From the NCBI GenBank assembly GCA_008632985.1, contig QPGO01000153.1, forward strand, positions 1 through 64,000: 64,000 nt of DNA, written 5' to 3'. This DNA is from Psammoneis japonica (Eukaryota). The first letter of the stretch is position 1, and each line of letters opens with the position of its first letter. Under the pieces are notes generated by a model. That model had not been told where the DNA came from. It saw only the letters and a program-made list of their open reading frames with translations, and searched no databases. Both the position numbers and the translations under genes were made by a program. Positions 1 through 49,186 of the stretch are shown here, piece after piece.

Positions 1-426
1 CGGTCACGCCCAACCTTGGTGCATTTCTACTGAAAGTCTACGTGTCCCATCCGTCCAGAGTCACAATTGAAGATGCGTATGTTTGCGATTACTTCTTGGT
101 CGCAGCTTTGTCACGTATTCCCGTTTGGCATTGTAAAGTACCACTCGAGCATAGGATGTGCGGCAAATGCAGTCATCGGAATTACGTGGACAGGTCTGAC
201 ACGAGGCATGACTTTGTGGGTCATGAAATCTCAGGTCACAAATAGGTCCAACGGATGTCTCTGCCTAAATCTCTCATGCCAGGCATAACTAATGCATTCT
301 CTGAACTACCCAATTCTCGGAAGGTGTGACTTTATCAAGTCATTTGTCAATCTTCGGCCAAGACTGTCGCGTCTAATCTCTGTCCAACGCACGAAAATTG
401 ATTTGTAATTGATGACCTGTCAAATA

Positions 427-459
427 AATGACCTCTTTGTGATTCACAGAATGGTCATT
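427..459. promoter_or_regulatory. Palindromic motif AATGACC-N4-TGTGATTCACA-N4-GGTCATT upstream of the LTD gene (candidate cis-element)
   Basis: Imperfect palindrome read directly. The same spaced motif occurs twice at 7189-7258, upstream of the HSF gene. Function is inferred only. Confidence 0.35.
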
Positions 460-645
460 CAGCCCTACGACAGATACGTTACGTCGGTACAACCAGGCAG
501 ACATTTTGATGAAAAACCGCTGACACTATGCTCACGAAGTTGTCAGCACGATCAACAATTTGTAGCGGCCAATTTGCGAGTGGATAAAAAACGGGAAGCA
601 TAATATTCTGTCCAGAGCAACAGCAAGATCAAACCATTTTTGAAA

Positions 646-1284
646 ATGACTATCGCCAGAAGGTCTCTACCAGCCACGAGTTTGGCGCTGCTCGCCCTCA
701 ACATGGCAACGGGACAACTCGTGATAAACGAAATCATGTACCACCCATCGGCAGTAAGTGATAAGCGCGGTGAATGGATTGAATTGTTCAACGCGGGTGA
801 TACTGAAGTTGACATCAATGGTTGGGTCATCAAAGACGATGACTACGACCATCACAGGATAAACAACGACGAACCTCTCGTAATTTCTCCCGGCGGTTAC
901 CTTGTACTCGGTAACAATGAAGACATCTCTGCCAACGGAGGTGTGGAGTTGGACTACTGCTACCACGAGCATTTTGTTTTGAACAACCGCGAAGATGAAA
1001 TTGTTCTAATGGACATGGACGGCACGACTGAGGTTGATCGCGTTGTCTGGAAAACAGATGAAGACAATGAAGACATCTTCTCCTCGCGTGAGCGTTTCCC
1101 TTACACAGCCGGTGCAGCTTGGGCTTTGCGCGACCCATCTCTGGATAACAATGTCGTTGGTCACTGGTGTGTGGCATCGACTTCCTATGGAAAAGGTGAC
1201 AAAGGTACTCCTGGCGCTGCCAACGACTGCACCGACAAAAGACACTTGGCAGAGGTGGGACGTGGTCTTAGGGGGCACCGTTAA
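646..1284 (+). CDS. Secreted lamin-tail-domain (LTD) protein, intronless
   Basis: Hydrophobic N-terminus, then LVINEIMYHP...GEWIELFNAGDTEVDINGWVIKD...ISPGGYLVL and C-terminal GTPGAAN, typical of bacterial-type LTD modules. ATG is at 646; the ORF track starts at TTG 640. Confidence 0.8.
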   Translation: MTIARRSLPATSLALLALNMATGQLVINEIMYHPSAVSDKRGEWIELFNAGDTEVDINGWVIKDDDYDHHRINNDEPLVISPGGYLVLGNNEDISANGGVELDYCYHEHFVLNNREDEIVLMDMDGTTEVDRVVWKTDEDNEDIFSSRERFPYTAGAAWALRDPSLDNNVVGHWCVASTSYGKGDKGTPGAANDCTDKRHLAEVGRGLRGHR

Positions 1285-1559
1285 CATTTATACGTCGGTA
1301 TAAACTAAAGAAAGTGCTGCCACAGTCCACGAGGATGAATCCATCCTGCTTTGTTTGAATCAACTGACATTACTTCGTTGTTTGCACCCGACTTCGTCAC
1401 ACGGCATCTCGCACTTGTTGTTGCTAATTTCATTCTTATTATCCTGTCTATGCATTGCCACGTTATTCTCTTCAAAAGTGTGGGTGGAACAGCAAACGTC
1501 GAAAACGAACCAGATGACACACTTTAATTTGAAACAAGACATTGCAAAACACAACTTTG

Positions 1560-4500
1560 GCATAACAGGCTCATCCCAGAAAGAGGGTCCGCTCAACTTG
1601 TTGAAGCCAATCTTTTGATTCCACAAGAGCTGAGTGGCAGCACAAAGAAGTGAGTGCATCTGGCAAGAAAGTAAAGAAATAAAGCAATTGCAGGTAAGAC
1701 AAAGGATGCTTCCTGAGCCAACAAGCAAACTTACAAGCATGATGGAACCACCAAACCACTGTGGACACAGGTGATGCCAGTCTTGTTTGAGAGAAAAGAA
1801 TGGTTCGATGGCGCATTGAGGTGCACAATTGTGACAAATGCAGGAATGCACTGGATGCATAAAAAAAGCATGCCCTCTGCCCCTGATTGATGGAGAGAGA
1901 AGAAAAAGCAGCATCTCACTGAACACAAAATGGCAATTGAATGCTGTGCCAAGCTCATCAAATGGGGTGACTTTGAAAGCCCTTTCTTGACCAACAGGAG
2001 TGCACTAGACACACACAAAAAAGCATGCCCTCCACTCCTGATTGATGGAGAGAGGAGAAAAGGCAGCATCCCACTGAACACAAAATGGCAGTTGAGTGCT
2101 GAGCCAAACTCATCAAACAGGGTAACTTTGAAAACCCTCTCTTGACCAACCCACGACAACAAACAACAAACTTGGTGTTTCTTGTTTTTCATCTTGCTGC
2201 TTCTTTGATTGGCTCCTTTGAAACGACGCTGCCGACAGAACAAGCAACAAGTGGCAAAAGCAAAAACTGCACAACTGGTGCAACACACTTGCCAAATGAA
2301 GTGCCTCTCTCAAAAGTTGAGCTTGGCCCTTTCATCCTTTTCAGTGCCTTTTCAGCATGACAGCAAAAGGAGGGAGAGTCATCATGCCACTCTCAGTGGT
2401 CAGGCTGGCTGCAAGTTTTTGTGTGACATCTGACACATGGGTCAGCCATGCGATGATGGCCAGATGGCAATCTGGGGACTGCCATCATGCTGGACAGTGC
2501 TGCAGTCACACAAATCAGTGCTCTGGCCAGCATTTGTCTGACCCCACCAGCTGGTGTTGCACACCTTTTGCATGGTCTGAGATTGAGGTGCAAAATGATG
2601 CATTCATTGTTGAGTCATGTTCATGAGTCATGAGAGTGCTCTCATCTTTGCATTGTGTTGGTTCAATGGTCAATGCCAGCACTCCACATTTTGCTCTCCA
2701 ATCCAGAGCAACATCTGAGCTGTTGGTCTCCCAACTGGGCTTTGGATGTGGTCAAGGCTGCGCATGTGAAGTTGACTTCAATGATGGCAAAACAAAAAAT
2801 GACAATGCCCAATGTGAGCAGCACTTCTTACATCCAGCAATGCACTCTCATGTCCTTGGGATGAGACTGCTTTGGACACAGCTGCATGTCTCTTTTGCGC
2901 TGTCATCATTTCCAGATGATTGCAGAGTGCCCCACAGCATCAAGATGCTGCAGTGCCTGCTGCGTGCAATTTTGATTTTGACTCTCTCATGGCGCTGATG
3001 TCGATGGCTGCCCTGCTCTTCTTTGCAGCTCCACAAATCTGCTTGTGACAATGCAGGAGTGCACTGCTGGAGATGCATCCCAAAAAATGTCCTCCACCCC
3101 TGATTGACAGAGAGAGGAAAAAAAGAAGAGCATCATCCTGCTGAACACAAAATGGCAATTGAATGCTGAGCCAAGCTTGTCACATGAGATGACTTTGAAA
3201 ACCCTCTCTTGACTGACCTTGGCAACAAAAAACAAACTTGGTGTTTCTTGTTTCTCATCTTGCCACTTCTTTGATTGGCTCCTTTGGAACAACACCAGCA
3301 CAACAAGCTGCAAGAGGTGAAAGCACAAGCTGCACAAATGGCGCGAAACTTGCCAAATGAAGTGCCCCTTGAGAGTGGAGCTTGGCCCTCTCATCCTTTT
3401 TAGCATCTTTTCAGCATGACAGCAAAAAGAGCACAAAACATCATTGGCCACTCAGCAGTTGGGTTGGCTGCAAGTTTTGTGTGTGGCATCTGATGCATGG
3501 GTCAGCCTCATGATGATGGCCAGATGACAATCTGGAGACTGCCATCATGCCAGATGGTGCCACAGTCTCACACCAATCAACACTCTGGCCGGCACCTGTG
3601 TGACCTTGCAGGTGGATGTTCTTGCACCTTTGCATTGGCTGAGATTGAGGTGCAAACAATGGGAGTCATTCGAAAATGTCGCGTGGGTCACAATTGACAT
3701 TTTGCACAAGGAAAAACACAAATGGTGAAGGCCAATGCCGTCAATCAGACAGCATTTCAACTCAGTTCCCGAAAAGTTGACATTCGTACACGGACGGATG
3801 GACAGACTGACAACAATTGTTTTTGGTGCTCTCCTGCACAATTTCTACGTGATGACTCTCAGGACCCGAATGATTCCTGTTGTGATGCATTCATTGTTGA
3901 GTCATGTTTGTGGGTCATGAGAGTGTTCTCATCTTTGCATTGTGTTGGTGCAATGGTCAATGCCAACACTCCACATTTTGCCCATCAGCCCAGCACAACA
4001 TCCAGGCAGGTTCAGCACTGGTGGTTTTCCAACCAAGCTTTGCCTGCAGTCAATGCTGCACATGTGAAGTTCATTTTTGTGTGACCCCACAGGTGGTTGT
4101 CACACCTTTGCATTGGCTGAGATTGTGGTGCAAAATGATGCAGTCATCATCAACTCATGTTTGCAGGACATGAGAGTGCTCTCATCTTTGTGCTGGTGCT
4201 GTGACGGTCAATGCCAATGCTCCACATTTCAACTTCCTGTCCAGTGCAACAACACCTGGGTTCTTGGTGTCCCAACCATGCTTTGGGTGTGGTCAATGCT
4301 TGCTGCACATGTGAAGTTGATTTCAACAATGGCAAAAAACAACAACTTGTTGTGCACAATGTGAGCAGTGCTCACATCCAGCAATGGACTCTCGTTGTTG
4401 TCAACATTTCCAAATGATTGGCAGAGTGTCCCACTGCATCAAGATGCTCCAGCACCTGCTTTCTTGTGCAACTTTGATTTTGAGCTCACAATGGTGCTGC

Positions 4501-6110
4501 CATCAAGGGCGAACTGCCCTGCTCTTCTTTGCAATTCTGCAAATCTGCAGCCCCCACAAACAACGCACAAAAGAGCATGTCAGAAGAATGTTTGGTTCAG
4601 AGAGATGCAGGTGCTGGTGTCTCTGAGGCAGGAGAGCATGCCAAAAGAGCCAGATTGTCTGTCAGCACCCAGGAGACACCACATTGGAAAAGGATGAGGC
4701 AATCTGTGGAAAGGAATGCAGTCGCTGTGTAAAGCAGAGTGCAACCTGCAAGAAGCAGAAGGCAAAGGTGTTCAGCGCAATTGTGGGGCAATGTGCCAAG
4801 GCCATTTGTCCCAAAATTGAAGGAGAAGTGAAGGAGCTCACAAGAGAGTGGCAAAGGAGCAGGAGGACATGGCAGCTCTTCTGGACACTCTCAAGTTGAT
4901 CTTGTTCAATGCAAATGAGAAGATGAAAACCAAATGTCCAGGTGTCCAAGGCTTGAAAGCAGTTGGTGCTCATTTGTCAAGATGAGAGAGAGGCGCTTCA
5001 AGATGTGTTGCCACAATTTTTTTGTGAGCATGGTTCTTGAAGTGGTGGAAATGTCCTGCAGCAAGATCTCACACCTCAGAAGAAATTGCCAAGAAAGAAG
5101 ATGAGCCCAGCGAGGGCGCTGATGACACCTGGGGCAAAGAAAGGAACAAGTTGTTGGTGGCAATGCCAGTGGAGGGCACCAAGGAACATTGGCATCATGT
5201 CTTGCAAGACCTGTGTCAGCAGTTCATGCTGGGGTTGAAATTTGCCCCAACTCAGCTGAGAAGGCACTGCAGGCATTGGGCACCCACAGGACAAACAGGA
5301 AACCTGATGTGGCACAAGCTTCGCACAGAACAAGAAGAAGCAGATTGATTGATGGAAATGCAATGAGGTTTGGCATGTGAGGAAGGGTTGCCCTGACAAC
5401 AATCGTTCATTGGCATCGGCAGAGTCAGATGATGTGAGCTGTGGGAGCCAGAGCAGAACAGTCGATGTGGCACTGGGCAGCATGGATTCTTCCAAGTGTC
5501 ATGATCCCGTGTGCTTGATGCCCATGTGGCCAATCACGTGACAGCTCACACAAAGGAGTGTGTTGGGACACTGGCACCAGAGGCAGTTTTTGGACAACAA
5601 CATGGCAAATTTTCACTCACAGGTCTTGTGCTCACTTTTTAGCTTCTGCCTGGTTGACAAAGAAGCAGCAGTTGACAGCATGAGAAATGTGCTTGCAAGC
5701 CACTCCGTGAGCCAGGGGTCAGCAAGACTGAATGCACACCAGCTGGCAAGCTGTGAAGCTCCAACATCAGAAGCATCATGGCTGATGCCGCCATTTGGGA
5801 AAACAGCAGGGGCCAATGGTGTCGCACCCAGGGATGTTGTCACCAGCAAGCCCCATTCTTCAGAAACCCACGACATTTTTTTGGCAGCAGCAGCCAGCCA
5901 GCACTTGCTGTGTCACCAACAACTGTGTTGCGCAACCAGAAGCATGCCATCAAACACTGCTCTAATGGCTGCACAGCACACCACACATTTTGAATGGTCA
6001 TTCGGCATCCGACTGGGTGAAGCCAGCAGCAGAAATGTGCGTCCCAAGCAGTCTTTTTGATTTTGGACGTTGACAGGTGATGTCAGAAAAGTGCGCAGCT
6101 TTATGACCGA
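1560..6110. mobile_element. Decayed repeat domain 1 (TpA- and CpG-depleted, TG/CA-rich) with nested internal duplications
   Basis: Fewer than ~10 TA dinucleotides by eye between 1900 and 6110. Internal copies: ~1850-1995 = ~2015-2145 = ~3080-3215; ~2150-2600 = ~3220-3660; ~2590-3050 = ~3880-4550. Boundaries are approximate. Confidence 0.7.
4700..5350 (+). pseudogene. Degenerate gag-like remnant of an LTR (probably Ty1/copia) retrotransposon
   Basis: KAKVFSAIVGQC... and HVLQDLCQQFMLG...EKALQALGTHR. Homologous at DNA level to 47970-48470 (- strand), which is followed by a degenerate CCHC knuckle. Confidence 0.5.
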
Positions 6111-6159
6111 AGAATGTCGCAGCGGGTCACAATTTTTTTTGAAATTGCACGATCTTCCT

Positions 6160-6242
6160 ATGTACAGTCGTAGTACTCTCTCTACTAGTACGGTAGCTAC
6201 TAGCTAGCTAGCTAGTAGTAGAGAGTACCGGTAGAGCTAATG
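6160..6242. repeat. TA-rich low-complexity tract (tagc/tag repeats)
   Basis: tagtactctctctactagtacggtagctactagctagctagctagtagtagagagtac. A similar tract lies at ~59710-59757. Confidence 0.6.
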
Positions 6243-6294
6243 TAGCACAGCATTGAACGCGCTGCTCTGGTAGCCATTCATTTTCTCAGAGTTA

Positions 6295-7105
6295 GGCTCG
6301 GTCTACAGGTGAACCGCGCCGGATCGGATCGACGGATCGGATCGCGTCAGAATTCCGTTAGTCGACAGGTGGAACCGGATCGGATCGCGGATCGGATTCG
6401 ACATTTTGATGTGAGTCGCAAAACGACATAAGTTTCAAGATTCCAAACTCCCAAGAACAACAAAGCGCTGACAACAGCGAACAACAAGAAGTGTGGCCAT
6501 GATGCTTCACATCTTGTCATAACGTGACGATATGACGACAGAACCATACTGTTATTACTGCTATACATACATATGAGACCGCATCATTGAGAATCGTTGT
6601 CACTCAGTGTTCGCAGCAACGCTAAGGAAGAAAAAGCTATCACTTTTGTAATTAGGAAACTAATGCAAATGTTTTCGTATTGAAATTTCGAATTAAATAA
6701 TAAATACTTGTTATTTTGCTTATTCAATGTTTCTCCAACAAATCTATACGGCATTATCGGTTTGACAAGCTATTCTATTGCCATGCGACCTTTCTCATCG
6801 TCATTTCGAGCATGGGAAGACTTTGACTATAATGCTCAGAATGTTCCTTGCCCTTATGGCTGAATCTTATGCCGTTCTGTGTCATAATCGTGTGATGTTG
6901 TGCCATTGTCGTGATGACGGCACGGAATCTTCAAAATTGGATCCGACATCCGATCCGGATTTTCGGATCGGACGGTCTTCGGAGCAAAATATGTCCCACG
7001 AAGGCCACGGATCGACTTTTTGACTCGATGGACTAACATTTTAATGGGTTATGAAGGAGTCGATCCGGCGATCCGATCCGGCTCGGTTCACCTGTAGACC
7101 GAGCC
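6295..7105. mobile_element. Non-autonomous PIF/Harbinger-type (Tourist-like) MITE, 811 bp
   Basis: 45-bp terminal inverted repeats GGCTCGGTCTACAGGTGAACCG(C/A)GCCGGATCGGATCG(A/C)CGGATCG with 2 mismatches. Flanked by TTA target-site duplication (6292-6294 and 7106-7108). Subterminal GGATC repeats; no transposase ORF. Confidence 0.85.
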
Positions 7106-7188
7106 TTAGACGTTTTAGTCTTTGTACACAAGACCGATAACAGTAGAATTTATTGTTTTTAGTCAAAGGCATTGTCTCAAAGCAAAAT

Positions 7189-7258
7189 ATGACCAATTTG
7201 TGATTCACAAAGCAGTCATCGATATTAATGACCCATCTGTGATTCACAAAGAAGTCAT
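7189..7258. promoter_or_regulatory. Two tandem copies (39-bp period) of ATGACC-N4-TGTGATTCACA-N4-AGTCAT upstream of the HSF gene
   Basis: Copies at 7189-7219 and 7228-7258; same motif as 428-458. Confidence 0.4.
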
Positions 7259-7383
7259 CGGGTCTTTCCGACAGTCACGTCCGCATGACTCATTTTCCTG
7301 GGCGGTTTTGCCTTCCCTGTTCTCACAAATGCAGAAAAACATAATCAAATCACAGCTAGTATTTTTGCAGGACTTGCAAAGTA

Positions 7384-8372
7384 ATGATGTCTTCTACTCA
7401 AATTCATTCGAGCATCAACGGGGGAATGCCCGCAGCAACATCTCACATCCGTCCTCCTTTTTCGTCTTATTCCTCTGAACTGCGGACGGGGTGTGACGAT
7501 GATGACAGCGAAGTTGAGGGAAATACCATGACATTGGAAAAACAGAGACCAAGAAACGGACGTAAGCGTCAGACTCGAAAAACTTTTCCATTTTTGCTCC
7601 ACGAGCTTCTTGCAGACAATGATCTTCAACATGTAATAAGTTGGCTTCCCGATGTGGCGAGTCGTTTGTCATCAAGTCGCGAGAACTTCTTGTAAAGGAG
7701 GCCCTAATTAAGTACTTCAAGGAGTCCAAGTACTTATCCTTTACTCGGAAGCTAAATCGGTGGGGCTTCAAAAGAACTACGAGTAACATCTATCCCAACG
7801 ACATTGTGTTCTTTCACCGTTTGTTTGTGAAGGACGCTCCAGACCTATGCAAGGGCATGAGCGGCGCCAGGAAACAATCCAAGAAACTTGCTAGTTTGCG
7901 GCGCCTCAGCAATGTGTACAGCGCCACCACTGATCGAAATGGCCATGAAAACATTGTTCGATCAGCTCCTCAGCTCATTCTACCTCCTCCTCCTTTTCAC
8001 TCGAGCTCAGGAAATATTTCTGCTGACCCAGTAGACCAAACCATATTTTCTGAGTATGAGGCTCAAGCATCGGCACTACTTGGAAGAGCAGGAAGTCATC
8101 TCGAGCAAGTGCAAGCTCTAAGGATGGAGATGGATGCAATGCACAGTGCTGCAGCTTTCTTTCAGGCACCGGTTGGCGTAGCTACAATGTTGCAGCCTCC
8201 TGCTTTAGAAGGTATTCGAGACCTAAGGGTGCCTAGTTCGCGTTCGTTGTTCTCCCTTGAAACTAATCAAGATATTGCCACACGATTGGATTTAGAGGCT
8301 CTGTTGATACGGAGACGTCAAGCAGAAAGGAACGATCGTTTCTTCAGGCTCATTGGTCGTCCGTATCCGTGA
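7384..8372 (+). CDS. Heat-shock-factor (HSF) type DNA-binding domain transcription factor; one frameshift at ~7652
   Basis: TFPFLLHELL...VISWLPD in one frame joins GESFVIKS...YFKESKYLSFTRKLNRWGFKR...FFHRLF in another. This is the canonical HSF DNA-binding domain split by an indel. Confidence 0.8.
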
Positions 8373-8789
8373 AATAGAAGTAGGGGGGATAAGCATTGAA
8401 AACTCAGCCTGAGAAGCAATAATGCCAATGAAGTAAATAAATGCTCCTTGTATGTCTTGGAGAAACAGAGACAACTTCTGCTCTGCGAGGAAGAAAAAGA
8501 TGGGATAGTCTAAATGATAAATGCGACGAAGGAATGGGAGTCACCGATAATCGAATCATAGTCACGAAATACGCACCCTACGAAGCTCATCTCTCATCTC
8601 CAAATAAACAATGAACAGATTGATCAAATCCCCTGTCTGTGCTGCACAGGCTACGTAGGTTCTCTACGGCACACCACGTAGCAGTCAAACATCCTGGAAC
8701 TTCTTTCGGTGAATGAACACCGAAAAGACCAAAGGACAATCCTCAACGCAAACCTCTTGTCACACTGTTGGATTGTGATTGTTGACATC

Positions 8790-9518
8790 ATGGAAAACCA
8801 ACACTATCGCCCTTCCCCCCACATCAAACTGGATGAGTCAGATGATGATTTCGGTGTATACAAATTTGAAGGAGAAGACGAGTTTGAAGGAGAAGACGAA
8901 TTTGAAGGTCCCGACGAATTTGAAGGTCCAGATGAGTTTGAAGGACCCGACGAGTGCGAAGGAGAAGACGAGTTCGAAGGCCTGGATGAAGATATAGAAG
9001 GCTCACATTTCATTCGTTACAGAGACGCATATCCAATGGCGCAACTTATTCAGTTAACGATCAACGAAAAGCCAAATAGTCTGGATGTTGACAAGAAGTA
9101 CGATGATTTGAATGAACAGCAAAAAGCGGATTACTATTTCAAGAAATCGTTGTCAGAAGATGAAGAGCTGAAGAATATCTACCTCGATATCTCTCAAGGA
9201 AAAAAGGAAGCAACTGCATTTGAGAACGACGACTCCACGTCAAAGAAACTCAAAGTCATTGAGGATGGATTAGCTAATCGAATTGACTTTGCTGTGAGAC
9301 AGCGGCGATTCGTGACGAAGCTGCATGCTGCCAAAATACTGACACATAGTGAAGATGTTTGGAAAAAGGTAACGATGGAGTTAACAAGAGCATTGGAAAT
9401 TGCGTCGAAATGGAACACCGAGCGAATGGAGTCGTTAACTAGTGCACTCGAGGTGGAGTCTCGATGTGATATCGCTGACACAGATTTTGAGCGCACCTTG
9501 CGTAGCATTTGGAAGTAA
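8790..9518 (+). CDS. Hypothetical protein with an acidic hexapeptide repeat
   Basis: Open frame from ATG 8790 with coding-like composition. No recognised domain. Confidence 0.55.
   Translation: MENQHYRPSPHIKLDESDDDFGVYKFEGEDEFEGEDEFEGPDEFEGPDEFEGPDECEGEDEFEGLDEDIEGSHFIRYRDAYPMAQLIQLTINEKPNSLDVDKKYDDLNEQQKADYYFKKSLSEDEELKNIYLDISQGKKEATAFENDDSTSKKLKVIEDGLANRIDFAVRQRRFVTKLHAAKILTHSEDVWKKVTMELTRALEIASKWNTERMESLTSALEVESRCDIADTDFERTLRSIWK
8865..8990 (+). repeat. 18-bp tandem repeat x7 encoding FEG(E/P)DE
   Basis: tttgaaggagaagacgag / tttgaaggtcccgacgaa etc.; variation is mostly synonymous. Confidence 0.9.
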
Positions 9519-9839: not shown

Positions 9840-12800
9840 TCAGCTACTGCTTGCTACTCTCTTACGCTTTCTTCGTCCCGAAGTGGCTTGTTCGTCCTTC
9901 TCATCGGCCCCGCTGCTCTTGCCTCTCCTTTTCCTTGTCTTTTTAGTTTCTTTAGCTCCACCATCTTTAGGAGTGTTGCCTGACAAATTGATTCGAATTC
10001 GAGTTTTCTTCCTTCTCGTTGACGGCGCTTCTGTGGCGTTCTCTTCATCGACGGCGGTGCCGGTGTCGTCCGGCGAAGCTGCTACATCTCCGTCAACTGA
10101 AGCGGGCTTTTTACGCCACCTCCTCTTCCGAATAGGAACTTCTTTCATGTTGGTGCATTTTTTGAGCAAGCAAGCCTTCTTGCGGATGCGTTTCGCTCCG
10201 GTGACGGTCTGATCTAAACATGCGACGCATTCGCCGCAGGGATCTCGCGTACACGCTTGACACTCCTTGCAGGGTACCAGCTTCGTCCTCACATCTTCGG
10301 TTCCCATGCCGTCTTCATTCGCGTCTTCACCTTCACCCGGTTTCTCGTCACTCTTCTTCCTCCTGCGGCGCCTCTTCTTTCCTTTACCTTCGCCGTCCTC
10401 GTCGTCGCCTTCTGCATCCGAGTAAACCTCGAGCACCGAACCATCTTCAGCAAGGAATAGATTGTGTTTCATGGCTGCGTCTTTCAACACCGCTGGTCGC
10501 ATAAGTGCTTGTCGCCTCGCTTCCTTGACAATATCAGAATCAGCCGCATTGAATTGGAGACAGTTTGTCATAACCAATACAAAGTCTTTCTGCATAGCCT
10601 GGGCGGAACGGTACTCCCCATTGGACAACTTCGCTTTCATCGTACCATAGTCCATTGGTTGCTTGATTTGTTCATAATACTCAGGGAACTCGTCTCGCGG
10701 AACAGGAACAGAAAACACTCCGCCTTTAGCGGTGTCGACTTTGATCATTTCGTCAATAACCGTCTCCAACACCTTGGATACCACACTGCGGGGAAAAGAC
10801 GGCCAGGGCCGACCAGCAGCCGTCGCTGCATCCTTATCCGACGCCCACGCTCTACGGCGCCTCGCCTCCTTCTTGCTAATACCTTGGCGCTTTCCTCCAC
10901 GGGATGCATAGATGTCCTCCCCAATATCCGACCAGTCGGCTTCCGAGTCTGAGTGGTGGAGATAGCCATCCTCTCCGAGGTATCCTCCGCTTTCCTTTTC
11001 GTCGACTCGTGATTTCTTTGCAGGTCTCTCGGATTTGTCCTCCTCGAGTCTGTCCCTACGCTGTCGTTTCCTTCGCTGACGGTCACTCAGGATCAGCAGC
11101 TCTTCAGGCACGTCCGCACTATTTGCTTCTGGACTGGCTACACTTGCGCTCGAAGGCTGCTCAACCACACGACATCTCCTTCGACGATCACCTTCCAGAC
11201 GCTTAAGCATGACTTTAGCTGTGTGCCGTTGTTCCTCGTTGAATAGTCCCTCTTTGACTGATATTGTCAAAAGTAGCTTCTGGCACGCCGATTTCTCAGC
11301 AGACGGCAACGAATCGTCCTCGGCTTCTTCGAAGATGCCATCCATCATACTCTTCAGGTCTGACATGAACTTGTGTACCTTCCTTACGTTTGTACGAGAA
11401 AGCGCCTTGTGTTCGTTTCCGCGTGGCTTTTCGTTCTCGACCTCCTCTTGCTTGTCTTCATCCTTCGCTTCTCCTTCGACTTCCTTATTCGCGTCGACCG
11501 CGCGCCCTTCGTCCTCTGCCGCAGGAGCTTCGTCTGGCTGGTCACCTTTTTCATTTAAAGCAGCTTCTCTCTTCTCGCGTGCTTCCTTTTCGGCTCGCTG
11601 TTGCCTCCATCGTCCTCTTCCGGGCCCTTTCTTTTTCCCAGAGCCCCCTTCAACTTGCTCCGAAAGCTCATCCAATTTTGTAAGCATAATTGAAGGAGTG
11701 ACAAAGTCTGGCATAACCTTTTGCCAAAACAAAGGATCGTCCACGTCTACGTCGGCCGCAGCACCATCGCTGTCACCGGCGAAACGACTTTTGCTCACTA
11801 CCATTCCCTGCTTATTCAGCCAAGAAGCGGTTTTTGCACCTTCGACCACGCGAGTGCGGGTTCTCTTGGCAAGGATGCTATCAATGTCATCGGCACAGAA
11901 CTCTCGCCCAGTTTCGTCGTTTTCGTCTTCGAGGAGCGCGTAGGCGCCCTTCTTGAGAAGTTGCTCCATTTCTTTCGACGTAGGTTTGTCGTCATCATTG
12001 TCTTGACCGAACGTTCCGAGCACGGCCTGCTCTAACCCAAGCTTCTTGCTTGCACGGTCAAACATTTCCTGCTCGAAAGTTCGGCTAGTGATGAGTCTGT
12101 AAATCCTCACATCCTTTGTTTGACCAATACGATGACAGCGAGCTTGAGCCTGAACATCATTTTGGGGGTTCCAGTCACTATCGAAAATTATGCAGATGTC
12201 GGCAGCGGTCAAGTTAATACCAACGCCACCAGCACGGGTAGAGAGTAAGAAGATAAAGCTGTCGTCTTGTGTTTCGAAACGGTCGATCGCCTTCTGACGC
12301 TCAGTGCCACGAACTCGACCATCGAGACGCTCGTAATTGAAGTGCCGAAAGTCGCAATACTCAGACATCAAGTCCAGCATCCTCACCATCTGGCTGAAAA
12401 TTAGAACCTTGTGTCCTTCTTGGCGAAGTTTAGGAAGCAGTTTGTCCAACAAGACCATCTTACCACTGCTTTGAATGTAGCCATGCTCGTTCAACATGAG
12501 CTGTTGGCCCTCGGGAGTTACGCCCTCTAGCTTGCCACTCTCCATCAATTCTCGGAACTGCTTATCGGCTTCCCTTTGCTCCACACCCTCTAACAAGCTG
12601 TGTTACAAGCAGAGCAACGAGAAAGATAAATGAGCGTATTAAGAACAACAGAGAAACATCAGGAGATGCAAAGAAAGTGGGTATGAAGAACTCACAAAGG
12701 ATGGTTGCAACACTTTCTCAGTTCCATCTGGATGTTCATTAGCTTTGGAGCGTTCGATCGAGTAGCACCCATACTGAGAAAAGAATGGTTGTGCTCAAAA

Positions 12801-15800
12801 ATAGCTCGATAATACTGTTTCTGGATACTCGTCAATTCAACGTCAATCACAGTTTCCTCCTTCGCAGGAATGTCTTTGGCGACATCCTCCTTGACACGTC
12901 TCAGCATGTATGGTGATATCTTGCGTTGCAACGCCTCCACCTGATCACGATTTGCCATGTTTCCGAAGTTGGCCTGAAACTCTTCCAGACTTGGAAACTT
13001 GAACGGTTCAATGAAATTGAGAAGAGTCCACAATTCTTGAGTGTTGTTCTGCAGAGGAGTGCCGGTCATTAGAATCCTGCTCTGAAACCCGTACTGTAGT
13101 GTACCCCGAGCGCTGATTTCCTTCATGCATTCGAGAAGCTTTCCTTTCACGTTGCGCAGTCGATGGGCCTCGTCTACTACAGCGACTCTCCACGGAATCT
13201 GGCCAATAATGTCGAAATCGCCAATAAGAGTATCATAGGTGGTGATCAACGCATCAAACTTCAAAAAGTCCGGAGTGTGAGGACGATCGGCATAATACCA
13301 CTCATACTCGCGCATCACATCTCGCCAAATCCGTTGCCTATCATGATACACGCAGCACACCATATCCGTCCATCCCTGAAACTCACGACGCCAGTGCTCC
13401 ACAGTAGACAGCGGAACAACTACCAAATACGGCCGTTGAATCTTCTCAACACGAGACAGATGCTCGATATACGAAACGATTTGTACTGCGTATAGAAAGA
13501 AGCAAGGCAGATAAGACTAAAGAACAGAAAACGAGCACCAAAAGCACACACGGCAATTCTTGTCTTACCGGTCTTGCCTAGGCCCATTTCGTCCGCAAGG
13601 ATGCAACTGTGACGCTTGTACCAGGTGCTTGCCAACCAATTCACCCCATCGATTTGGTAGTCGCGCAGTTTGTTCCCGTTCTTGTAAATATGAGGATCAT
13701 CGTGATCATAGAGCTTGTCGCGGAATTCTAGGTAAGCATCCTTGCCCTTCTTACTGCTTCCGCTTTTATCGCCAGACTTGGCCGTAACCTCTGCTCCAGC
13801 GAGAGCGTAGCGCCATCGATAGCCACCCACCTCATCACCTAGTTCCTCGTCGTAGTCGCCCTTGAGCATTTGTTTGATTTCGTTCAACGATATCTGAAGA
13901 GTCGCGGCGGCATCTTCGGCGCTCGCCCAGATTCTGATGGTTTTGTTCGACGTGGTTTCAATCTGCTCAACCTTCACTGTAGATCGATTGGCCGTCTTCT
14001 CGGTTGTTTCTTCCTCTGACTTGCCGCCTGATCGTGTCGCCATTCTACCGTCCTCGTTGGAGCTCTCAGCAGCAACCTCTTCCTGAGATTCACTTCCGTC
14101 TAGCTTGTTCGACTGAGTTTCATTTGGGAACGGAAACTTTTCAAATTCAGCAGCATCCGGCTCAACAGACGTTAACGTGACAGCAGCGCACACCTTTCCA
14201 CTTTCGCCTAGAGTTGAAAAGTCATTCTTTTTCACTGGAGCCGTTCGTTCTTCTTCGTCGTCATCTTGTGCATTGCCTTTTGGCTTGGCCGTTTTCTTAT
14301 CGCCCACACATGCTTGCTGTGCTTCCTTTAGTGTCGAAAAGGTGCTGTCTACACCATCAAGGAAATACGCACAGTCTTCGTCGCCTCCTTCATCACTACT
14401 GTATCCAATATCCTCATTGAGAAGTCGGTAAGCCAGAGAATGTGCCGTCTCTGGTCTTATCAGCTCGGGAGCTTCTGCAGCAATGCCGTTGCTCATTCCC
14501 TCGGCCGTAACAGCAGCCTTTTCATTTTGGCTCCCTCGTCAGAAGGCGACACGGCCGGGGAAGGTCCCTTTCCGTTCATTGCCTGTGCCTCAGCATTGGA
14601 AGGAGGACTAGGCGCCGCTGGAGACGGCTGTTTCTTGGACCGAACGAGCTCTTCGTCGTCGCTGTCGGGTTCAAATTCACCCTCGCTGCCCTCGTCCTCG
14701 GAATCGTCGTCGTCCGAGGTGTTTCGTTCTCCGACACTGCCGTCGCTTTCTTCTGCTTCCTTCTCAAACTCTTCCTCCACTTGCTGGTGTCGCCGTTGCA
14801 ACACCAATCGTTGCCGATCGCAAGCAAACTTCTTTTGCAACACCTCGGTTGCGTAGCGACCCGTCATTCCAATGCTGGTGAGTTCATTGTTACAAACTTG
14901 GTACCTGCGTTCGAGAAGGCGCATAAAAGCATACTGGTTCTTGCCACTTTCCCGTAGCATATGGATAACGTCCTTGAACGACTTGTTGATGGTACTCACT
15001 CCATCGACAGCAACAATCTTGTCTCCGTTATTACGAATGAGATTGGCAATCTCGGCGGGACCCCGAGATCCGTCTGCGAATTGACGGTACCCAAGAAACG
15101 CCATCGAACCATGAATGTCTCCGACATTCATCATGAGGCCCTTGGAGGTGACTGGGATGACGGCATCATACTCTCCCGTCAAGAGCGGAGGCATACCAGC
15201 ACTCAGATCCATCAAGGCCTGCGAGGGACTGCGAGACAACCGATACGTCATGTCGGTAACGCACTCGACAACTTCAGGTGGGTGCTCGATAGAACTCTGC
15301 GTTGACGAGAAAGAGTCTTCTCGTGCCCTCATTTTGGGACCACACTCCACGCCGAGACGTTCCGGCACATCCAGCCCAAATTTGGTAAACTGAAAAGCTC
15401 GCGTCTGCGCGTAGAGCTGAGAACGAAGTTCGGGAATGCAAGAGATACCACCGGCGTTTTCCACATTGACGTGCTGCACCTTTTCCAAGACCTCATTGAC
15501 TTCTGCTTCCGTCACGTCGGGTTCGTCAGGACTCGTGTTGTTGAGCTGATAGTATTCTTCAATCAAGGCATCGTCATCGATATCCTCCTTGGTTTCCCAG
15601 GTGCAAAACTCATATCCCAGTCCCGCCCACTTGACGAGAAACATGTTTTGCTTGATCGTCCTTTTGGGTACATCCCCCAACTCTGCCCTCTTGCGCGCGG
15701 CTTGCTCCGAGACAGCGGAAAGCATACGGACACCCTTGACGGTCGACAGCTTTGGCTTGCAATCGGGACAATGCCAAATACCCTTGGGAAGCTTGGTGAG

Positions 15801-17651
15801 CCCGACACACTGCATTCCATAATTGGCATCACAGTGATCACACAGGACCATCTTGTCATCGGACGCCCCACACTCGCCATCACAATGACGACACGTGTGC
15901 TCCCACGGTCGGGCCTTGGGGTTGATCCAACGGAGGTAGCGCTCGCGATATTCCAACACCCATGCGTGGTAGAGGCGTTCAAACTGCTTGGACATGTAGT
16001 CAGCCACATACCAAATGGCAGAGCCGTGCTGGTTGTAAATCTTGCAATTGTTCCAGACCTATCGTATGAGAAATGATTGAAAGTTAGAGAGTGCTACACA
16101 TCGTGCAAGAGACAACAGCAACTTTCAGACTAACAAATACTTACCTTTCGGACATCCCGTGCAAAGTTCTCGGGAGCCTGATATTTCCGCTCCTTCAGTT
16201 TGGTAGCAATCGTTCCCAAATCCATGGGCTGCTCAACAATCTCTTCATAATCGGAAAATTCATCCACGTCCACAGGCTCCAAAAAGATATTGGCAAACCC
16301 ATCCTTGGAAATACGGTCCAACACCATTTTACATCGCCGCAGCGGCTGCCACATTTCACTCGGCCTTTGGGCCCGTTCCATCATTTGCCGTTCCCGTTCA
16401 AACTGTTCCGTCTCTTCCCGTTGCAATTGAATGTAGGGTGCCTGTTCTTCCTCCGACATGGTGCGCCACGCGTCACCAATCATGGTCATGATTTCCGACG
16501 GAGCCGCGTCCGGATGCTTGCGTTGAATCTTGGGACGAGACACGGCTTGAAACAAGAGATAGGACGAACGTGGCTTTTTCGGTGGGGTCGTAATGTATCC
16601 GTCTCGATAGGGATTGTCGCACCCTTCAAAGGACGGATAGAACGGACCATCCTTGTTGATGATTTTGCGAAGCTTGTCAATCGTCAATTGACTGATATCT
16701 TGATCTTCTTCCTCATCATCTTGCTTTTCTTCTGCAAAGAAAGCAAAAGAGTGACAGAGCATAAGGTGAGAAACAACAATAAGCATAAGGCGGATAACAG
16801 GAGAAGAGGGCCCCAGAAACGGGAAAAGACGGCTTACCTGACTTTTCCTCGGACTTGTCGCTCGGTTCTTCCGTCGCTGCGGCAGCAGTGACACCAGATG
16901 CGTCCTTGGGAGACTCGCTGTCCTTGTCCTTCTTTTCTTCTTCTTCGTCTTCTGAAGAATCCGAGTCCTGTTCCAATTTCTGTTTCTTTTCCCACTCCAC
17001 CAATTCCTTATCGGTCAATTCGACCGTAATTTCTTGTTCAGCATCGTCGACAATCTTTTGAGGCTCGGCGAAGGATGGATCAAAATTGGGATCTTCAATA
17101 TCCTCTTCTTGTCCCGAAGCAATCTTTTTGAGAAAGCGTCTGTACAGCGTTTTAGCCGACTTGTTCATGGATTCCAGATCCGCACCAGTCTTCCATTCCA
17201 AATGAAGATAGGAACGGCCCTTGTACTTGACGAGATACTCGTACTCCAGTACCGGACCGCCGCCGTCGTCGTTGGCTTCGTCTTCCCCATCGAGATTGGA
17301 TTTCTGATCTTCCATAGGCCGCCGTCCTACAATCAAATCGATTTTGGGAGAACCGTCTAATTCGTATTCTGGCATGAACGTAAAGCGTTCTCGAAGTGGC
17401 GGTAAGGATGGATCATAGCCTTTTTCTGTATGGACCGGTGCGTAATTATTGTCTTCACTTGTGTCCATGGAATCCTGTCGTCGCACGGTGGAACGCTGCT
17501 GTTTACGAGAGGATGAACGTGGTGGCTGTGGCTGCTGTAGCACTTCATCCTTTTCAGCCTCGTCTTCAAATAAGTCATCGTCACTAAATTCTTGTTCCTT
17601 GGCATAATCTACAACCTTGGCCGTCTTGCGACGTGCACGGCCGCTTGACAT
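9840..17651 (-). CDS. CHD-type SNF2 chromatin remodeller with chromo-like, HMG-box, bromo, PHD, chromo, PDZ-like, SNF2 ATPase, HELICc, second bromo and CXXC-type Zn-finger domains
   Basis: Exons 17651-16838, 16731-16145, 16058-13569, 13485-12696, 12597-9840 with GT-AG introns. Motifs [56 protein letters not shown]. One missing A in an A-run at ~14525 breaks exon 3. Confidence 0.9.
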
Positions 17652-22859: not shown

Positions 22860-24425
22860 CGTTGCCGCTTAGGCGTTCATTGTCTCTTGAAAATCTGCGG
22901 TTGAGTGTTTGGGCTCTTGATTTTGCGGATACAACAGATGTATTTTCTCGCTAAACGTGTTCGATCACACCACTTCGAGGAACAATAACCTAGCAGACAA
23001 TACCTGTTGTATTATACTGTATGTTACACTACAATACCAGCGACCATTGACCATGTTGGTCCTCTAAGACGTTTGGGGGGTGGGGAATACGCCGGCATTC
23101 TCAACCGGAGCGCACTTGGGTGCCACATACGGCTGCGTTGTAATCTTTTTGGAAATCTCGTTAGCGTCCGAGACGGTCAATTCGTTCTTCATAAACCCAG
23201 CACCCGATTCCGACAAACGTCCTTTCCAGCCACAAGCCTGATACAGAGCTTCCATGTCCTCGATTGCTGCCATTACATCTTTTGTGGATGGGACACCACC
23301 CATGACGGTGTTGTAGAGTACAATCGTTACCGTGCAATGTTGACTGGGGTCGCGTTTGGGTTTCGAGTTAATGACACCCTTGACTTCTCCCAGAGCTTCC
23401 GAACCACGGCTGACTCTGGCTGCATTTGCAGTACCTTGGAAGTCTTCATCAGCGTCATCAACTTCTTCTTCATCTTCCTCATCAATATAAGCGCATCCAA
23501 GCTCTTCATCAAGCCCCCCGCAGCGCATAGGTTGCAGCAGTAGTCCGTCAATGGCAAAAGCGCCAGGGTCTAAGCCGAATATTTCATGAATTGGCTTCGG
23601 TTTGGCTGTCTGCTGTAGTGGAATTTGAATCGTCATTAAAGCATTGAAACGTGTACCCATGGTCTCGATTCCAATCACTGACGCGGTGGCTTTTCCCCGC
23701 GAAGCTGCCTCTGCGGCTTCTTGTTTGGTTTCGACCTGTGCCCCACCAACCTTGTGCTCGCTCCGCTCCGCCTCAAGCCAGTGCAGATGCATCTCACTGC
23801 TGGCATCGACCGCGTGGTGGAAAAGCCTTTTGGAACCAGCACCGTCCTGCTGATAGGCGATTCCCTGAGTCGTGCATAGCACGACTGCGTTGCGAGGATC
23901 GTCATCTGATCTCGTATTGTAGTTGTATGCTTCGGTGCAAAACTCCACCGCCTCCGATTCGTCTACCGGAAGAAACGTAGTTTGAAAACGAATGGATACC
24001 TCCTTGTCAAGCTTTTCATCCCACAAGGTTGTGTCGCTATTGACACCATTGTAAGAAGCGTACATTCCCACGTTTTTGAGAAAATCTTGGAGCGTGATTG
24101 GCTTCAATGCCACAGGTTCCTTTCCCGGTGGGGGTTCATGGTTGCCAACAACTACGGCAATGTCTTGAGCTCTCACTTTACCAAGTTTCTCGTTCCAATT
24201 ATCCGAACGAACTGTGTAGAGCAAGGTGCCGGACTTTTCATAGAGACGAGTGTCGGTAATGTTTCCTCCCCAACAGCTGAGACTTCCACCGACTGTTCCA
24301 CGTTGAACGTCGTCCCAAGAGACGCTCTTGCAAGAATATCCCGTGCCCCAGCAGGCTTGGTCAATGGCTTGGCGAGTCTCTTGTATGGAGGCAGCGGCGG
24401 CATTAATACGATTGCGCATGATGAT
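22860..24425. repeat. Local segmental duplication, copy A (copy B at ~28553-30038)
   Basis: Near-identical coding sequence plus shared 3' flank (gcttaggcgttcattgtctcttg...aaacgtgttcgatcac). Confidence 0.85.
23064..24419 (-). CDS. Uncharacterised conserved-looking protein, 451 aa, intronless (copy A)
   Basis: Long clean ORF. Motifs VSWDDVQRG...SCWGGNITD, VRSDNWNEKLG, AYNYNT, KRDPSQHCTVT are conserved in the paralog. Confidence 0.8.
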   Translation of the reverse strand: MRNRINAAAASIQETRQAIDQACWGTGYSCKSVSWDDVQRGTVGGSLSCWGGNITDTRLYEKSGTLLYTVRSDNWNEKLGKVRAQDIAVVVGNHEPPPGKEPVALKPITLQDFLKNVGMYASYNGVNSDTTLWDEKLDKEVSIRFQTTFLPVDESEAVEFCTEAYNYNTRSDDDPRNAVVLCTTQGIAYQQDGAGSKRLFHHAVDASSEMHLHWLEAERSEHKVGGAQVETKQEAAEAASRGKATASVIGIETMGTRFNALMTIQIPLQQTAKPKPIHEIFGLDPGAFAIDGLLLQPMRCGGLDEELGCAYIDEEDEEEVDDADEDFQGTANAARVSRGSEALGEVKGVINSKPKRDPSQHCTVTIVLYNTVMGGVPSTKDVMAAIEDMEALYQACGWKGRLSESGAGFMKNELTVSDANEISKKITTQPYVAPKCAPVENAGVFPTPQTS

Positions 24426-24719
24426 TCTAGATTTTCAATTTAGATTTTTCGTTGTCGTTTTTTTTTTTTTTTGTGAGTGAGAGGAAGAATCGAGTCGCGG
24501 GTCGGGTCGCGGAACACCAACATCAAAAATTGAGGAGTCGTGGCTCGACTCGAGTTCGCGCGAAGAGTCACGAGTCTGATTCACGCATTGCGATGACTGG
24601 TGACTCCTCGACTGCTCCTCTGTGCGATGCATCATCGATTTGTCACATCTTCGCCCGGAAGAAACGTACGTTGATGGTCGTCTTCTGCTGGTGGCGGCAA
24701 TCGGAGTGACGTTGTGATG

Positions 24720-28723: not shown

Positions 28724-30032
28724 CTAAGACGTTTGGGAGGTGGGGAATACGCCGGCATTCTCAACCGGAGAGCACTTGGGTGCCACGTATGGCTGCGTCG
28801 TAATCTTTTTGGAAATCTCGTTAGTGCCCGAGACGGTCAATTCGTTCTTCATAAACCCAGCTCCCGATTCCGACAAACGTCCTTTCCAGCCACAAGCCTG
28901 ATAGAGAGCTTCCATGTCCTCGATTGCCGCCATTACATCTTTTGTGGATGGGACACCACCCATGACGGTGTTGTAGAGTACAATCGTTACAGTGCAATGT
29001 TGACTGGGGTCGCGTTTGGGATTCGAGTTAATGACACCCTTGACTCTTCTCCCAGAGCTTCCGAACCACGGCTGACTCTGGCTGCATTTGCAGTACCATA
29101 CCTTGGAAACATTCAGCACAATCGTCTTCTTCTTCGTCTTCTTCATCAAAGTAAGCTTCTTCTTCTCCAGAAGAATGGCATATGAAGCCTCCGGCGTAGT
29201 ACGCTTGACGATACATTATTGGCGTCGGTTTGGGTTTCTGCTGCAACGGAATTTGAATTGTCATTAAAGCATTGAAACGTGTACCCATGGCCTCGATTCC
29301 AATCACTGACGCGGTGGCTTTTCCCCGCGAGGCAGCCTCTGCGGCTTCTTGTTTGGTTTCGACCTGTGCCCCACCAACCTTGTGCTCGCTCCGCTCCGCC
29401 TCGAGCCAGTACAGATGCACCTCGCCGTTGGCATCGACCGCGTGGTGGAAAAGCCTTTTGGAACCAGCTCCGTCCTGCTGATAGGCGATTCCCTGAGTCA
29501 CGACTGCGTTGCGAGGATCGTCATCTGATCTCGTATTGTAGTTGTATGCTTCGGTGCAAAACTCCACCGCCTCCGATTCGTCTACCGGAAGAAACGTAGT
29601 TTGAAAACGAATGGAGACCTCCTTGTCGAGCTCTTCATCCCACAAGGTTGTCTCGCTATTGACACCATTGTAAGACGCGTACATTCCCACGTTTTTGAGA
29701 AAATCTTGGAGCGTGATTGGCTTCAATGCCACAGGTTCCTTTCCCTGTGCAGGTTCATGGTTGCCAACAACTACGGCAATGTCTTGAGCTCTCACTTTGC
29801 CAAGTTTCTCGTTCCAATTATCCGAACGAACTGTGTAGAGCAAGGCGCCGGACTTTTCATAGAGACGAGTATCGGTTATGTTTCCTCCCCAACAGCTTAG
29901 ACTTCCACCGACTGTTCCACGTTGAACGTCGTCCCAAGAGACGCTTTTGCAAGAATAGCCAGTGCCCCGACAGGCCTGGTCAATGGCTTGGCGAGTCTCT
30001 TGTATGGAGGCAGCAGCGGGTTGATTGCGCAT
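28724..30032 (-). pseudogene. Paralog (copy B) of 23064-24419, frameshifted
   Basis: Relative to copy A: 9-nt deletion (LCT), a 5-nt insertion at ~29098 and a 2-nt insertion at ~29045 that break the frame. Could be partly assembly error. Confidence 0.7.
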
Positions 30033-30674
30033 GATGATTGTTTATTGTGAGATAAGACAGCCGCCATAGTTGTGTTCTTTGTTCAGACGGTATACACGGA
30101 ACATACATCAAAACTCGAAAATCGTGGAATTGAGTCGTGGCTTGCATCTCTCTCGGGCACCCGAAGCCTGCGGGGAGTATGAAAGATGTGGTCGCGTCCC
30201 ACGACCAACATTAATACTCTCTCGTGATGATGCGGTCGCTAAAACTGAAAAATATAAAAATAATCAGTGTGTGTATAGAATTCAATGATCATGTGTCACG
30301 ACTCAGATTTTTCACCCCACTCAACTCCATGCAAGGAAAAAGGAAACAAAAGACCACCAGTCTCCAGTCTTTATGGTGCAATCCGTCACACCTGTAATCC
30401 TCCTTTGTTCCCGCAAAAGCGGATACAAGGGATGTATCACTTGCCCAGATATACTGACGACCATACAAAAATACCTTGCCTTTCACTTGCAAATTCTTCG
30501 CGACTCGCTCAACGCCATCGCGGTGCGCGCTTCAGGGCGGTTTTAGCGATTGGCACGAGTCAAGATTGATATCTTGCCGAAATCGCGGATGCGTTTTGAT
30601 CACGCATGGATGTTGCTTTCCCCGGATGGCAGTCATCACATCACAACCTATGAACGACGACGTTTGTAATAATC

Positions 30675-45555: not shown

Positions 45556-45755
45556 TGTCGTTTCTCTCTGACCGTTCTTCGGTTATGTATAAGCTGAAGT
45601 AGTGCTGCAGATGCACTACTACAAAGTAACATGCCAGTGGTACTGTACTGTACCAGTGAAAAGGGAAAAGGAATGTAGGGCTATGGGCTTTTGGTTTTGG
45701 CGACGGGTTAATGATGGTTATATGATGATTCTTCGCTGAAATTGAAATAAGCTGA

Positions 45756-49150: not shown

Positions 49151-49151
49151 C

Positions 49152-49186
<35 letters not shown>
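49151..49186. repeat. (CAA)12 microsatellite
   Basis: Read directly. Confidence 0.9.

Follow-up and report, generated by a model that had tools for sequence, protein, structure and literature searches.

Islands nearly devoid of TA dinucleotides in a contig of the diatom Psammoneis japonica: a probable end state of TpA hypermutation overlaid with methyl-CpG decay

How a stretch of several kilobases in a diatom contig could come to lack nearly all of its TA and most of its CG dinucleotides is the question raised by the first 64,000 nucleotides (nt) of contig QPGO01000153.1 of Psammoneis japonica (assembly GCA_008632985.1), read on the forward strand and referred to below as the window. The first-pass annotation, made from the letters alone, had described positions 1560-6110 as nearly free of both dinucleotides, rich in TG and CA and flanked by genes of ordinary composition, and had proposed one regional mutator that drives both dinucleotides towards TG/CA. 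Dinucleotide observed/expected ratios (o/e) over the 64-kb window, obtained from sliding counts, from the lengths of stretches without TA and from a table of all dinucleotides, showed four TA-purged islands; the annotation had seen only the first, and the other three share its signature.

Island 1 (1600-6100, no strand assigned) was TA-purged, CpG-poor and TG/CA-rich, and had no recognisable coding capacity. Its segment 1900-6110 (4211 nt) contained 10 TA (o/e 0.036), 49 CG (o/e 0.20), 483 TG (o/e 1.89) and 497 CA (o/e 1.85), or about 1.87 for TG/CA, in agreement with the near-absence of TA, the scarcity of CG and the TG/CA excess described earlier. The flanks were indeed ordinary, as the 46,551 nt outside all four islands gave an o/e of 0.56 for TA, 0.98 for CG, 1.14 for TG and 1.17 for CA. 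Had island 1 the frequencies found outside, it should hold 167 TA and 225 CG (Poisson P = 1e-57 and 5e-46, respectively). The island was tiled by TA-free runs of 706, 572, 386, 884, 910 and 323 nt, compared with a median TA gap of 17 nt in the window, and its base composition was even (about 25% per base). Besides the loss of TA and CG, no 3-mer or 4-mer was strongly depleted in the word count.

The other islands, likewise without an assigned strand, were island 2 (24441-27245, 7 TA), the short island 3 (42450-43810, 6 TA), which lies 240 nt from a DUF6824 gene, and island 4 (45979-52654, 17 TA), the largest. Together the four islands covered 15,053 nt (23% of the window) and held 40 TA in total, with an o/e of 0.04-0.07 for TA, 0.20-0.35 for CG and 1.7-1.9 for TG and CA. 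The count of TG was close to that of CA in each island. AA, CA and GA were not depleted, the o/e of AA being 1.21 in the islands and 1.18 outside. The borders were 100-200 nt wide except at the left edge of island 1, which was graded across about 1600-1870; its right border was sharp at about 6100, where TA plus CG per 100 nt rose from 1-5 to 16. Intergenic DNA elsewhere in the window reached a TA o/e as high as 0.88.

Duplicated sequence inside the islands gave evidence on the timing of the loss. Diverged internal direct repeats with units of about 1.06-1.29 kb occupied 1829-4548 of island 1 (plus strand), and the aligned pairs, all in direct orientation on the plus strand, were 1841-1995/1995-2150, 1995-2594/3054-3656, 2533-3042/4076-4548, 2596-2773/3883-4071 and 3883-4076/4136-4323, with 74-87% identity within pairs. 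The duplicates that had been quoted as differing at exactly the affected sites were all recovered: gggTAacttt at 2120 against gggTGacttt at 1966, cacTAgac at 2003 against cacTGgat at 1850, and tttTAgc at 3398 against tttCAgt at 2339. Six paralogue pairs from the islands, 73-87% identical over 2161 aligned nt in all, formed the test set, and two pairs of normal composition (1951 nt) the control set. TG faced CA 75 times in the island pairs and 0 times in the normal pairs. Other double transitions in the same island pairs were far fewer (AC/GT 6, AG/GA 7, TC/CT 3, AT/GC 11, AA/GG 4 and TT/CC 4), and the TG/CA excess over the AC/GT, AG/GA and TC/CT controls had a Fisher odds ratio of 6.0 (P = 1e-12). 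In addition, CG faced TG or CA 22 times between island copies.

To reach TG in one copy and CA in the other, two substitutions are needed, except where an ancestral TA or CG was resolved separately in each copy. If resolution is assumed to be a coin toss, the 75 discordant pairs correspond to some 150 sites in the ancestors (6.9% of positions); a further 1.4% are still TA or CG in one copy, and ordinary DNA in the window has 9.3% TA plus CG. Since the reconstructed ancestral level is close to this 9.3%, the repeat ancestors had ordinary composition, with nearly the entire purge postdating duplication. The 75 pairs thus speak against a young consensus already lacking TA. In 6 of 6 pairs TG and CA states followed one another in an order that looked random, and no strand-coherent tracts, as from a processive single-strand deaminase, were found in the six island alignments. 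Both strands were hit, site by site.

The direction of change was read from a glyoxal/galactose-oxidase-like pseudogene in island 4 (49675-51189, plus strand), which has 504 in-frame codons and one internal TGA. Its TA o/e was 0.10 and its CG o/e 0.58. It matched the Pfam family GO-like_E_set (E = 3.6e-13) and aligned over 96-98% of its length to proteins of 500-870 amino acids (aa) at 23-33% identity; the best relatives were unnamed and the named ones mostly bacterial. A search for a closer oxidase relative that would allow polarity to be called codon by codon found none, the closest in both length classes being 30-33% identical. Tyr codons (TAY) contain TA, and an oxidase-like gene is therefore a natural test of polarity.

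In an alignment of the pseudogene with 19 homologues, six columns were at least 80% Tyr, and at these the pseudogene had His (CAT) twice, Cys (TGT/TGC) twice, Trp (TGG) once and Tyr (TAC) once. An Arg that is invariant in the homologues (19/19) was His (CAT) in the pseudogene, a CGN to CAN change. The Tyr of two catalytic motifs was replaced (R-W-Y by R-K-H and R-x-Y-H-S by R-L-C-H-S); presumably one of these Tyr is the cross-linked residue and the other the axial ligand at the copper site. Tyr made up 0.3% of the 359-aa C-terminal open reading frame (ORF) of the pseudogene, the homologues having 3.3% (with a minimum of 1.8%); for Cys the figures were 1.9% and 0.3%, and for His 4.5% and 2.1%. 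Judged against these homologues, TA became both CA and TG in one strand of the pseudogene, and CG became CA. The reading frame is otherwise intact, so that TA-directed changes were fast relative to insertions and deletions. The part of the annotation that proposed a regional mutational process from TA and CG to TG and CA is therefore backed both by the 75 TG-versus-CA pairs and by the Tyr codons turned into CAT, TGT or TGC. Descent from an element that lacked TA all along is excluded, because copies resolved their sites independently and conserved Tyr codons were changed.

The two losses were separable. At 24442-24730 there was 1 TA (9.6 expected, P = 7e-4) together with 29 CG (o/e 1.6), and at 46000-47000 in island 4 there were 0 TA (36 expected) with a CG o/e of 0.52. 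No stretch with the reverse pattern, CG lost and TA kept, was found in the window. CG thus goes more slowly than TA, and the loss of TA does not require that of CG. For this reason the single mutator that the annotation had put forward for both dinucleotides was not supported: in these two segments and in the pseudogene, TA loss precedes CG loss or is found without it. The flanking bases mattered as well. Of the 40 surviving TA, 20 followed T and 1 followed A, while 19 preceded A and 4 preceded T. Counted on both strands (80 observations), the base after the A was A in 39, G in 19, C in 17 and T in 5, against expectations of 19, 16, 23 and 22 (chi-square P = 7e-8). TAT/ATA is hit best and TAA/TTA survives.

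The islands ran across sequence of unrelated kinds, from repeats to the oxidase-like pseudogene and a stretch of 290 nt just upstream of ORF 23064-24434. A direct duplication of 1.5 kb (22856-24426/28545-30039, 87% identity) brackets island 2; its paralogous ORFs, 23064-24434 and 29028-30041, are both on the minus strand and matched no Pfam family. The region upstream of the first copy (24441-24730, immediately upstream of the minus-strand ORF) falls within the TA-free zone. The duplicate itself was untouched, with 59 of 70 aligned TA sites kept and 0 TG/CA pairs. Multi-copy DNA at about 6100-7340 (summed depth about 1100 as against 60, roughly 18 copies) adjoins island 1 and had normal TA and CG. 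Copy number is not the trigger, because neither the 87%-identical duplicate nor the element of about 18 copies was affected; the process acts by position. Within this multi-copy DNA, 6294-7106 is a GGATCG-rich element some 810 nt long, bounded by terminal inverted repeats of 46 nt that are 96% complementary; its TA and CG were normal, and it is probably a young non-autonomous DNA transposon.

Taken together, the islands are probably the end state of TpA hypermutation of the type described in the chlorarachniophyte Bigelowiella natans (Mettrop et al., bioRxiv 10.64898/2026.01.13.699255), overlaid with methyl-CpG decay. Polarity, hits on both strands, timing after duplication, confinement within sharp borders, loss of TA before CG and the flanking preference are the observations on which the reading stands. 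The islands would be old, probably silenced, repeat-derived and pseudogene DNA of the diatom, in which two context-specific transition processes act in place, on DNA, and within the limits of the island. One would be a TpA-targeted A:T to G:C change, giving TG where the top-strand A is hit and CA where the bottom-strand A is hit, site by site and with equal probability for the strands, with TAT/ATA preferred and TAA/TTA spared. The other would be the ordinary decay of methylated CpG to TpG or CpA, slower and lacking in at least one CG-rich stretch. The products match deamination (A to hypoxanthine, 5-methyl-C to T) on either strand of a self-complementary dinucleotide. For the TA loss the leading guess is that a deaminase, TadA/ADAT2-like or of another kind, converts adenine in DNA to hypoxanthine, which is then read as G. 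Targeting may be by silent chromatin or small RNAs, CpG methylation of the islands is presumed, and the role may be heritable inactivation of repeats or foreign DNA, in effect like repeat-induced point mutation (RIP) of fungi. For the CG loss, the known CpG methylation of diatom repeats would be sufficient, transposable elements (TEs) of diatoms being CpG-methylated in the accessible parts of two reports (PMC2806351; PMC9998398).

Other accounts were weighed against this combination of two processes. One dual-specificity mutator, possibly an ADAT2-like enzyme, might deaminate both the A of TpA and the C of CpG; TA and CG are depleted in the same islands with common borders, and amphioxus ADAT2 deaminates A and C in DNA with TCG preferred for C, according to the part of the report available (PMC10354150). 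T was also rarer before surviving CG in the islands than outside (28% vs 35%). This account is nevertheless improbable, as the losses are uncoupled at 24442-24730, at 46000-47000 and at 3657-3880 (2 TA, 10 CG), methylation-driven CpG decay is already a sufficient and known cause, and G/C to A/T changes are near zero in the B. natans process in the available text of the preprint (bioRxiv 10.64898/2026.01.13.699255). If no deaminase were involved, error-prone repair (polymerase-eta-like, at WA) or a modified T at TpA (5-hydroxymethyluracil) that mispairs, with mismatch repair lacking, could be proposed, and strand-symmetric, tract-free and domain-confined action does fit a chromatin-linked repair or replication regime. 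In phase 2 of antibody hypermutation, WA motifs are the places where polymerase-eta misincorporates opposite T, and 5-hydroxymethyluracil in dinoflagellates shows a TpA preference. There is little to recommend either version, since a polymerase error should also affect AA, whose o/e was no lower in the islands than outside, and among the matches listed for 5-hydroxymethyluracil, judged by title and abstract, there were only dinoflagellates and no diatoms.

It is very unlikely that no regional process was at work and that the islands are foreign DNA adapted to avoid TA and CG, retro-copies edited in an ADAR-like manner, or old DNA at neutral equilibrium. RNA viruses and some DNA viruses are described as avoiding CpG and UpA, and ADAR favours U before the edited A (available text of bioRxiv 10.64898/2026.01.13.699255). 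Copies within one island, however, resolved the same sites differently, and the catalytic Tyr codons were destroyed, which indicates decay and not adaptation. Editing should affect many contexts, yet AA, CA and GA were not depleted, and neutral equilibrium does not agree with normal duplicates that keep 59 of 70 TA at 87% identity or with intergenic TA o/e of up to 0.88. ADAR-type editing carried by retro-copies does not fit the equal and intermixed TG and CA on one strand, even within one gene, which editing of one strand cannot produce. A sequencing or assembly artefact is unlikely because contigs of one public run (exact-word depth about 60, mean contig about 214 nt) reproduced island 1, with 1 differing letter and 1 gap over 1604-3684 and 0 differences over both 3955-4644 and 5276-6321. 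Such an artefact, in which TA and CG of the true DNA are modified and hence wrongly read as TG or CA, would be the least credible account of all; random miscalls would also yield TG/CA discordance among copies, and some long-read platforms can make systematic miscalls on heavily modified repeat DNA. Against this, 3.8 kb of island 1 was reproduced at a depth of about 60 with a single differing letter, such depth and contig size are usual for accurate short-read data, in which modified bases are called normally, and a two-strand, column-wise consensus would produce TA and CG and not eliminate them.

Several points weigh against TpA hypermutation with methyl-CpG decay. Regional hypermutability is inferred from an end state only, in sequence, and the homologues behind the polarity call are distant (23-33% identity). 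The available text of the B. natans preprint stresses foreign DNA, whereas the diatom islands are without demonstrable viral or TE origin: no TE or viral Pfam family was found in 125 ORFs of the four islands or in 18 read-through frames of islands 1-3, and the read-through peptide of 4698-5348 had no relatives among 1.84 billion representatives. CpG is co-depleted in the diatom islands, and the same text makes no mention of CpG. The contexts reported for the amphioxus enzyme BjADAT2 on DNA are GAA for A and TCG for C, and not TA, in the part of the paper available (PMC10354150). The signature (TA o/e <0.15, TG/CA >1.4) was present in 0 of 1669 one-kb windows from 80 metagenomic loci of unassigned taxa (895,549 nt), a weak negative that serves only as a specificity control, as the loci were those with relatives of a flanking CHD gene (44-85% identity), gene-centred and many of them probably transcripts. 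The stretch was present in one sample (three public runs, one study), and no RNA run was listed among the three, which has no bearing on expression; the platform of the run that reproduced island 1 is off record, and the run is possibly the assembly's own data.

The contents of the islands were mostly without recognisable families. ORFs of 70 aa or more numbered 125 over the four islands; in a Pfam scan of these, only the oxidase was real, and two further sub-threshold matches were at chance level. Island 1 (40 ORFs of at least 70 aa and six read-through frames) gave 0 families, as did the twelve read-through frames of islands 2-3. TA-free DNA has no TAA or TAG stops and therefore carries spurious ORFs of great length, whichever of the six frames is read. 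Positions 1-9000 were overlapped by 24 ORFs of 100 aa or more, about 17 of them inside island 1, and TGA occurred about once per 40 codons. A 357-codon open frame in island 2 (25752-26825, plus strand), of Ser/Pro/Leu-rich low complexity and without a Pfam family, is most likely a by-product of such stop-poor DNA and not a gene.

Island 1 was multi-copy from about 3336 onwards, with a summed contig depth of 400-2800 as against 60 and 828 contigs at a likeness of at least 80%, while 1335-3335 was single-copy at that likeness and still purged. A repeat family that is multi-copy in the genome is common to islands 1 and 4, its copy at 4951-5574 (plus strand) corresponding to an inverted copy at 47844-48449, the two being 70.5% identical by BLAST and 72.7% identical when aligned with MAFFT; the summed depth was 530-1072 in the two bins spanning 4670-6003. 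The high-copy repeat fragment inside island 1 at 3657-3880 (no strand assigned; 10 CG, 2 TA) had a summed depth of 2824 as against about 60 in the bin 3336-4002, with loose ends at 3657, 3722, 3766 and 3779, and is probably a younger insertion caught part-way, with TA lost first. A second copy of 1341-1633, 1735-1856 and 3152-3340, about 11% diverged, was present at similar depth in two of the runs, and TA and CG occur in the letters between the pieces. Among 25 differences listed (of more) for the copy of 1341-1633, the window had TG/CA and the copy TA/CG in 7 and the reverse was seen in 3, which is too few for use; this copy may be a less-mutated paralogue and a potential outgroup.

The neighbouring genes had recognisable relatives. 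They include a CHD-type remodeller (9840-16058, minus strand) with SNF2, bromodomain, CXXC and chromodomain matches, the DUF6824 protein (44047-45582, minus strand) and leucine-rich-repeat proteins. The CHD fragment was 67-68% identical to its best relatives, which are unnamed. Among named proteins, those of the raphid pennate diatoms Seminavis robusta, Nitzschia inconspicua and Mayamaea were 59-63% identical to it, which fits the annotation's guess of a diatom and places the host among the raphid pennates. Other features of normal composition were an ORF at 8682-9518 (plus strand) with a run of acidic DEFEG-like repeats, a tandem array at 36070-36950 with 4-5 units of about 190-200 nt (61-100% identity by segment), and nested hairpin-forming inverted repeats (35-nt and 31-nt arms) at 45753-45959, just outside island 4. 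Adjacent to these and just inside the same island, at 45982-46154, there was a second hairpin-forming inverted repeat whose 47-nt arms are 85% complementary and differ at CG versus CA.

If the proposed reading is true in this diatom, TpA hypermutation is not a curiosity of one species and may be old within the SAR (stramenopile, alveolate and rhizarian) supergroup. A wider proposal, offered as a speculation that is more doubtful than not by a good measure, is a SAR-wide ancient genome defence common to diatoms and chlorarachniophytes, in which a chromatin- or RNA-guided DNA adenine deaminase erases the TpA of silenced or foreign DNA; such machinery may also contribute to the CpG loss in this diatom. 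The combination of TA o/e <0.1 with TG+CA >1.6 could serve as a genomic marker for targeted DNA in any assembly, and TA loss can be distinguished from CpG methylation decay. The preference for TAT and the sparing of TAA would constrain any candidate enzyme, and base-editing work would have an interest in a naturally occurring editor of adenine in duplex genomic DNA. TA-free DNA is also an annotation hazard, as it yields spurious long ORFs.

Among known systems, RIP resembles the diatom process in making heritable, dinucleotide-specific transitions at the DNA level that wreck coding capacity and leave a sharp compositional footprint. Its direction is opposite, since RIP turns CpA into TpA, as stated in the available part of the source (PMC2621366), whereas in the diatom TpA was down to an o/e of 0.04 and CpA/TpG up to 1.8, which is not the pattern of RIP. 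Nor did duplication act as the trigger that it is in RIP, the 87% duplicate and the element at about 6100-7340 being normal and the single-copy 1335-3335 purged. RIP further involves the enzymes RID and Dim-2 and premeiotic timing. The SAR-wide defence would, if true, be an 'inverse RIP' that over time leaves stop-codon-poor, Tyr-less and TA-free DNA. Methyl-CpG decay would account for the half of the signature in which CG becomes TG or CA and for its restriction to repeat-like, presumably silenced DNA. The TA loss, in contrast, is stronger than the CG loss and is present where CG is intact, and methylation cannot remove TA. As candidate chemistry, the ADAT2/ADAT3 enzymes of the TadA family would provide both A to I and C to U on DNA within one enzyme family. 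In tRNA their natural target is A34, which always comes after U33, and this matches the T-A context. DNA activity is also known for Trypanosoma ADAT2, as cited in the available text of the preprint (bioRxiv 10.64898/2026.01.13.699255).

The closest likeness is to B. natans, for which the following is taken from the available text of the same preprint (bioRxiv 10.64898/2026.01.13.699255). In mutation-accumulation lines, two integrated viral regions mutated at about 1000 times the background, and 11 of the 15 lines hypermutated; of 231 new mutations that arose in the two regions, 230 were A to G or T to C, all at TpA. The genome contained 124 clusters of TpA-poor, CpA+TpG-rich windows, and an ADAT2-like protein was proposed as the DNA adenine deaminase. 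The diatom islands share the TpA to TpG and TpA to CpA products on both strands, of which only the end states can be read, and the regional confinement, seen here within one 64-kb window. They also share the long-term footprint of clustered TpA-poor, CpA+TpG-rich windows whose affected genes are mostly unannotatable, as that text describes them. B. natans is a rhizarian, whereas the host here is a diatom and thus a stramenopile; diatoms are not mentioned in the available text, and the literature searched described neither TA-purged islands nor TpA hypermutation for any diatom. The purge is deeper in the diatom (TA o/e 0.04) than in the hypermutable nucleocytoplasmic large DNA virus region of B. 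natans (Rho 0.45, with a cluster cut-off of <=0.43), and the islands are 1.4-6.7 kb long and lie between host genes, compared with viral inserts of 25-186 kb, both as given in the part of the preprint available. That 2026 preprint (bioRxiv 10.64898/2026.01.13.699255) is the sole precedent found for TpA hypermutation; what is new here is the lineage, the near-complete purge, the small size of islands set between genes, an origin that is not demonstrably viral, and a CpG part that is uncoupled from the loss of TA.

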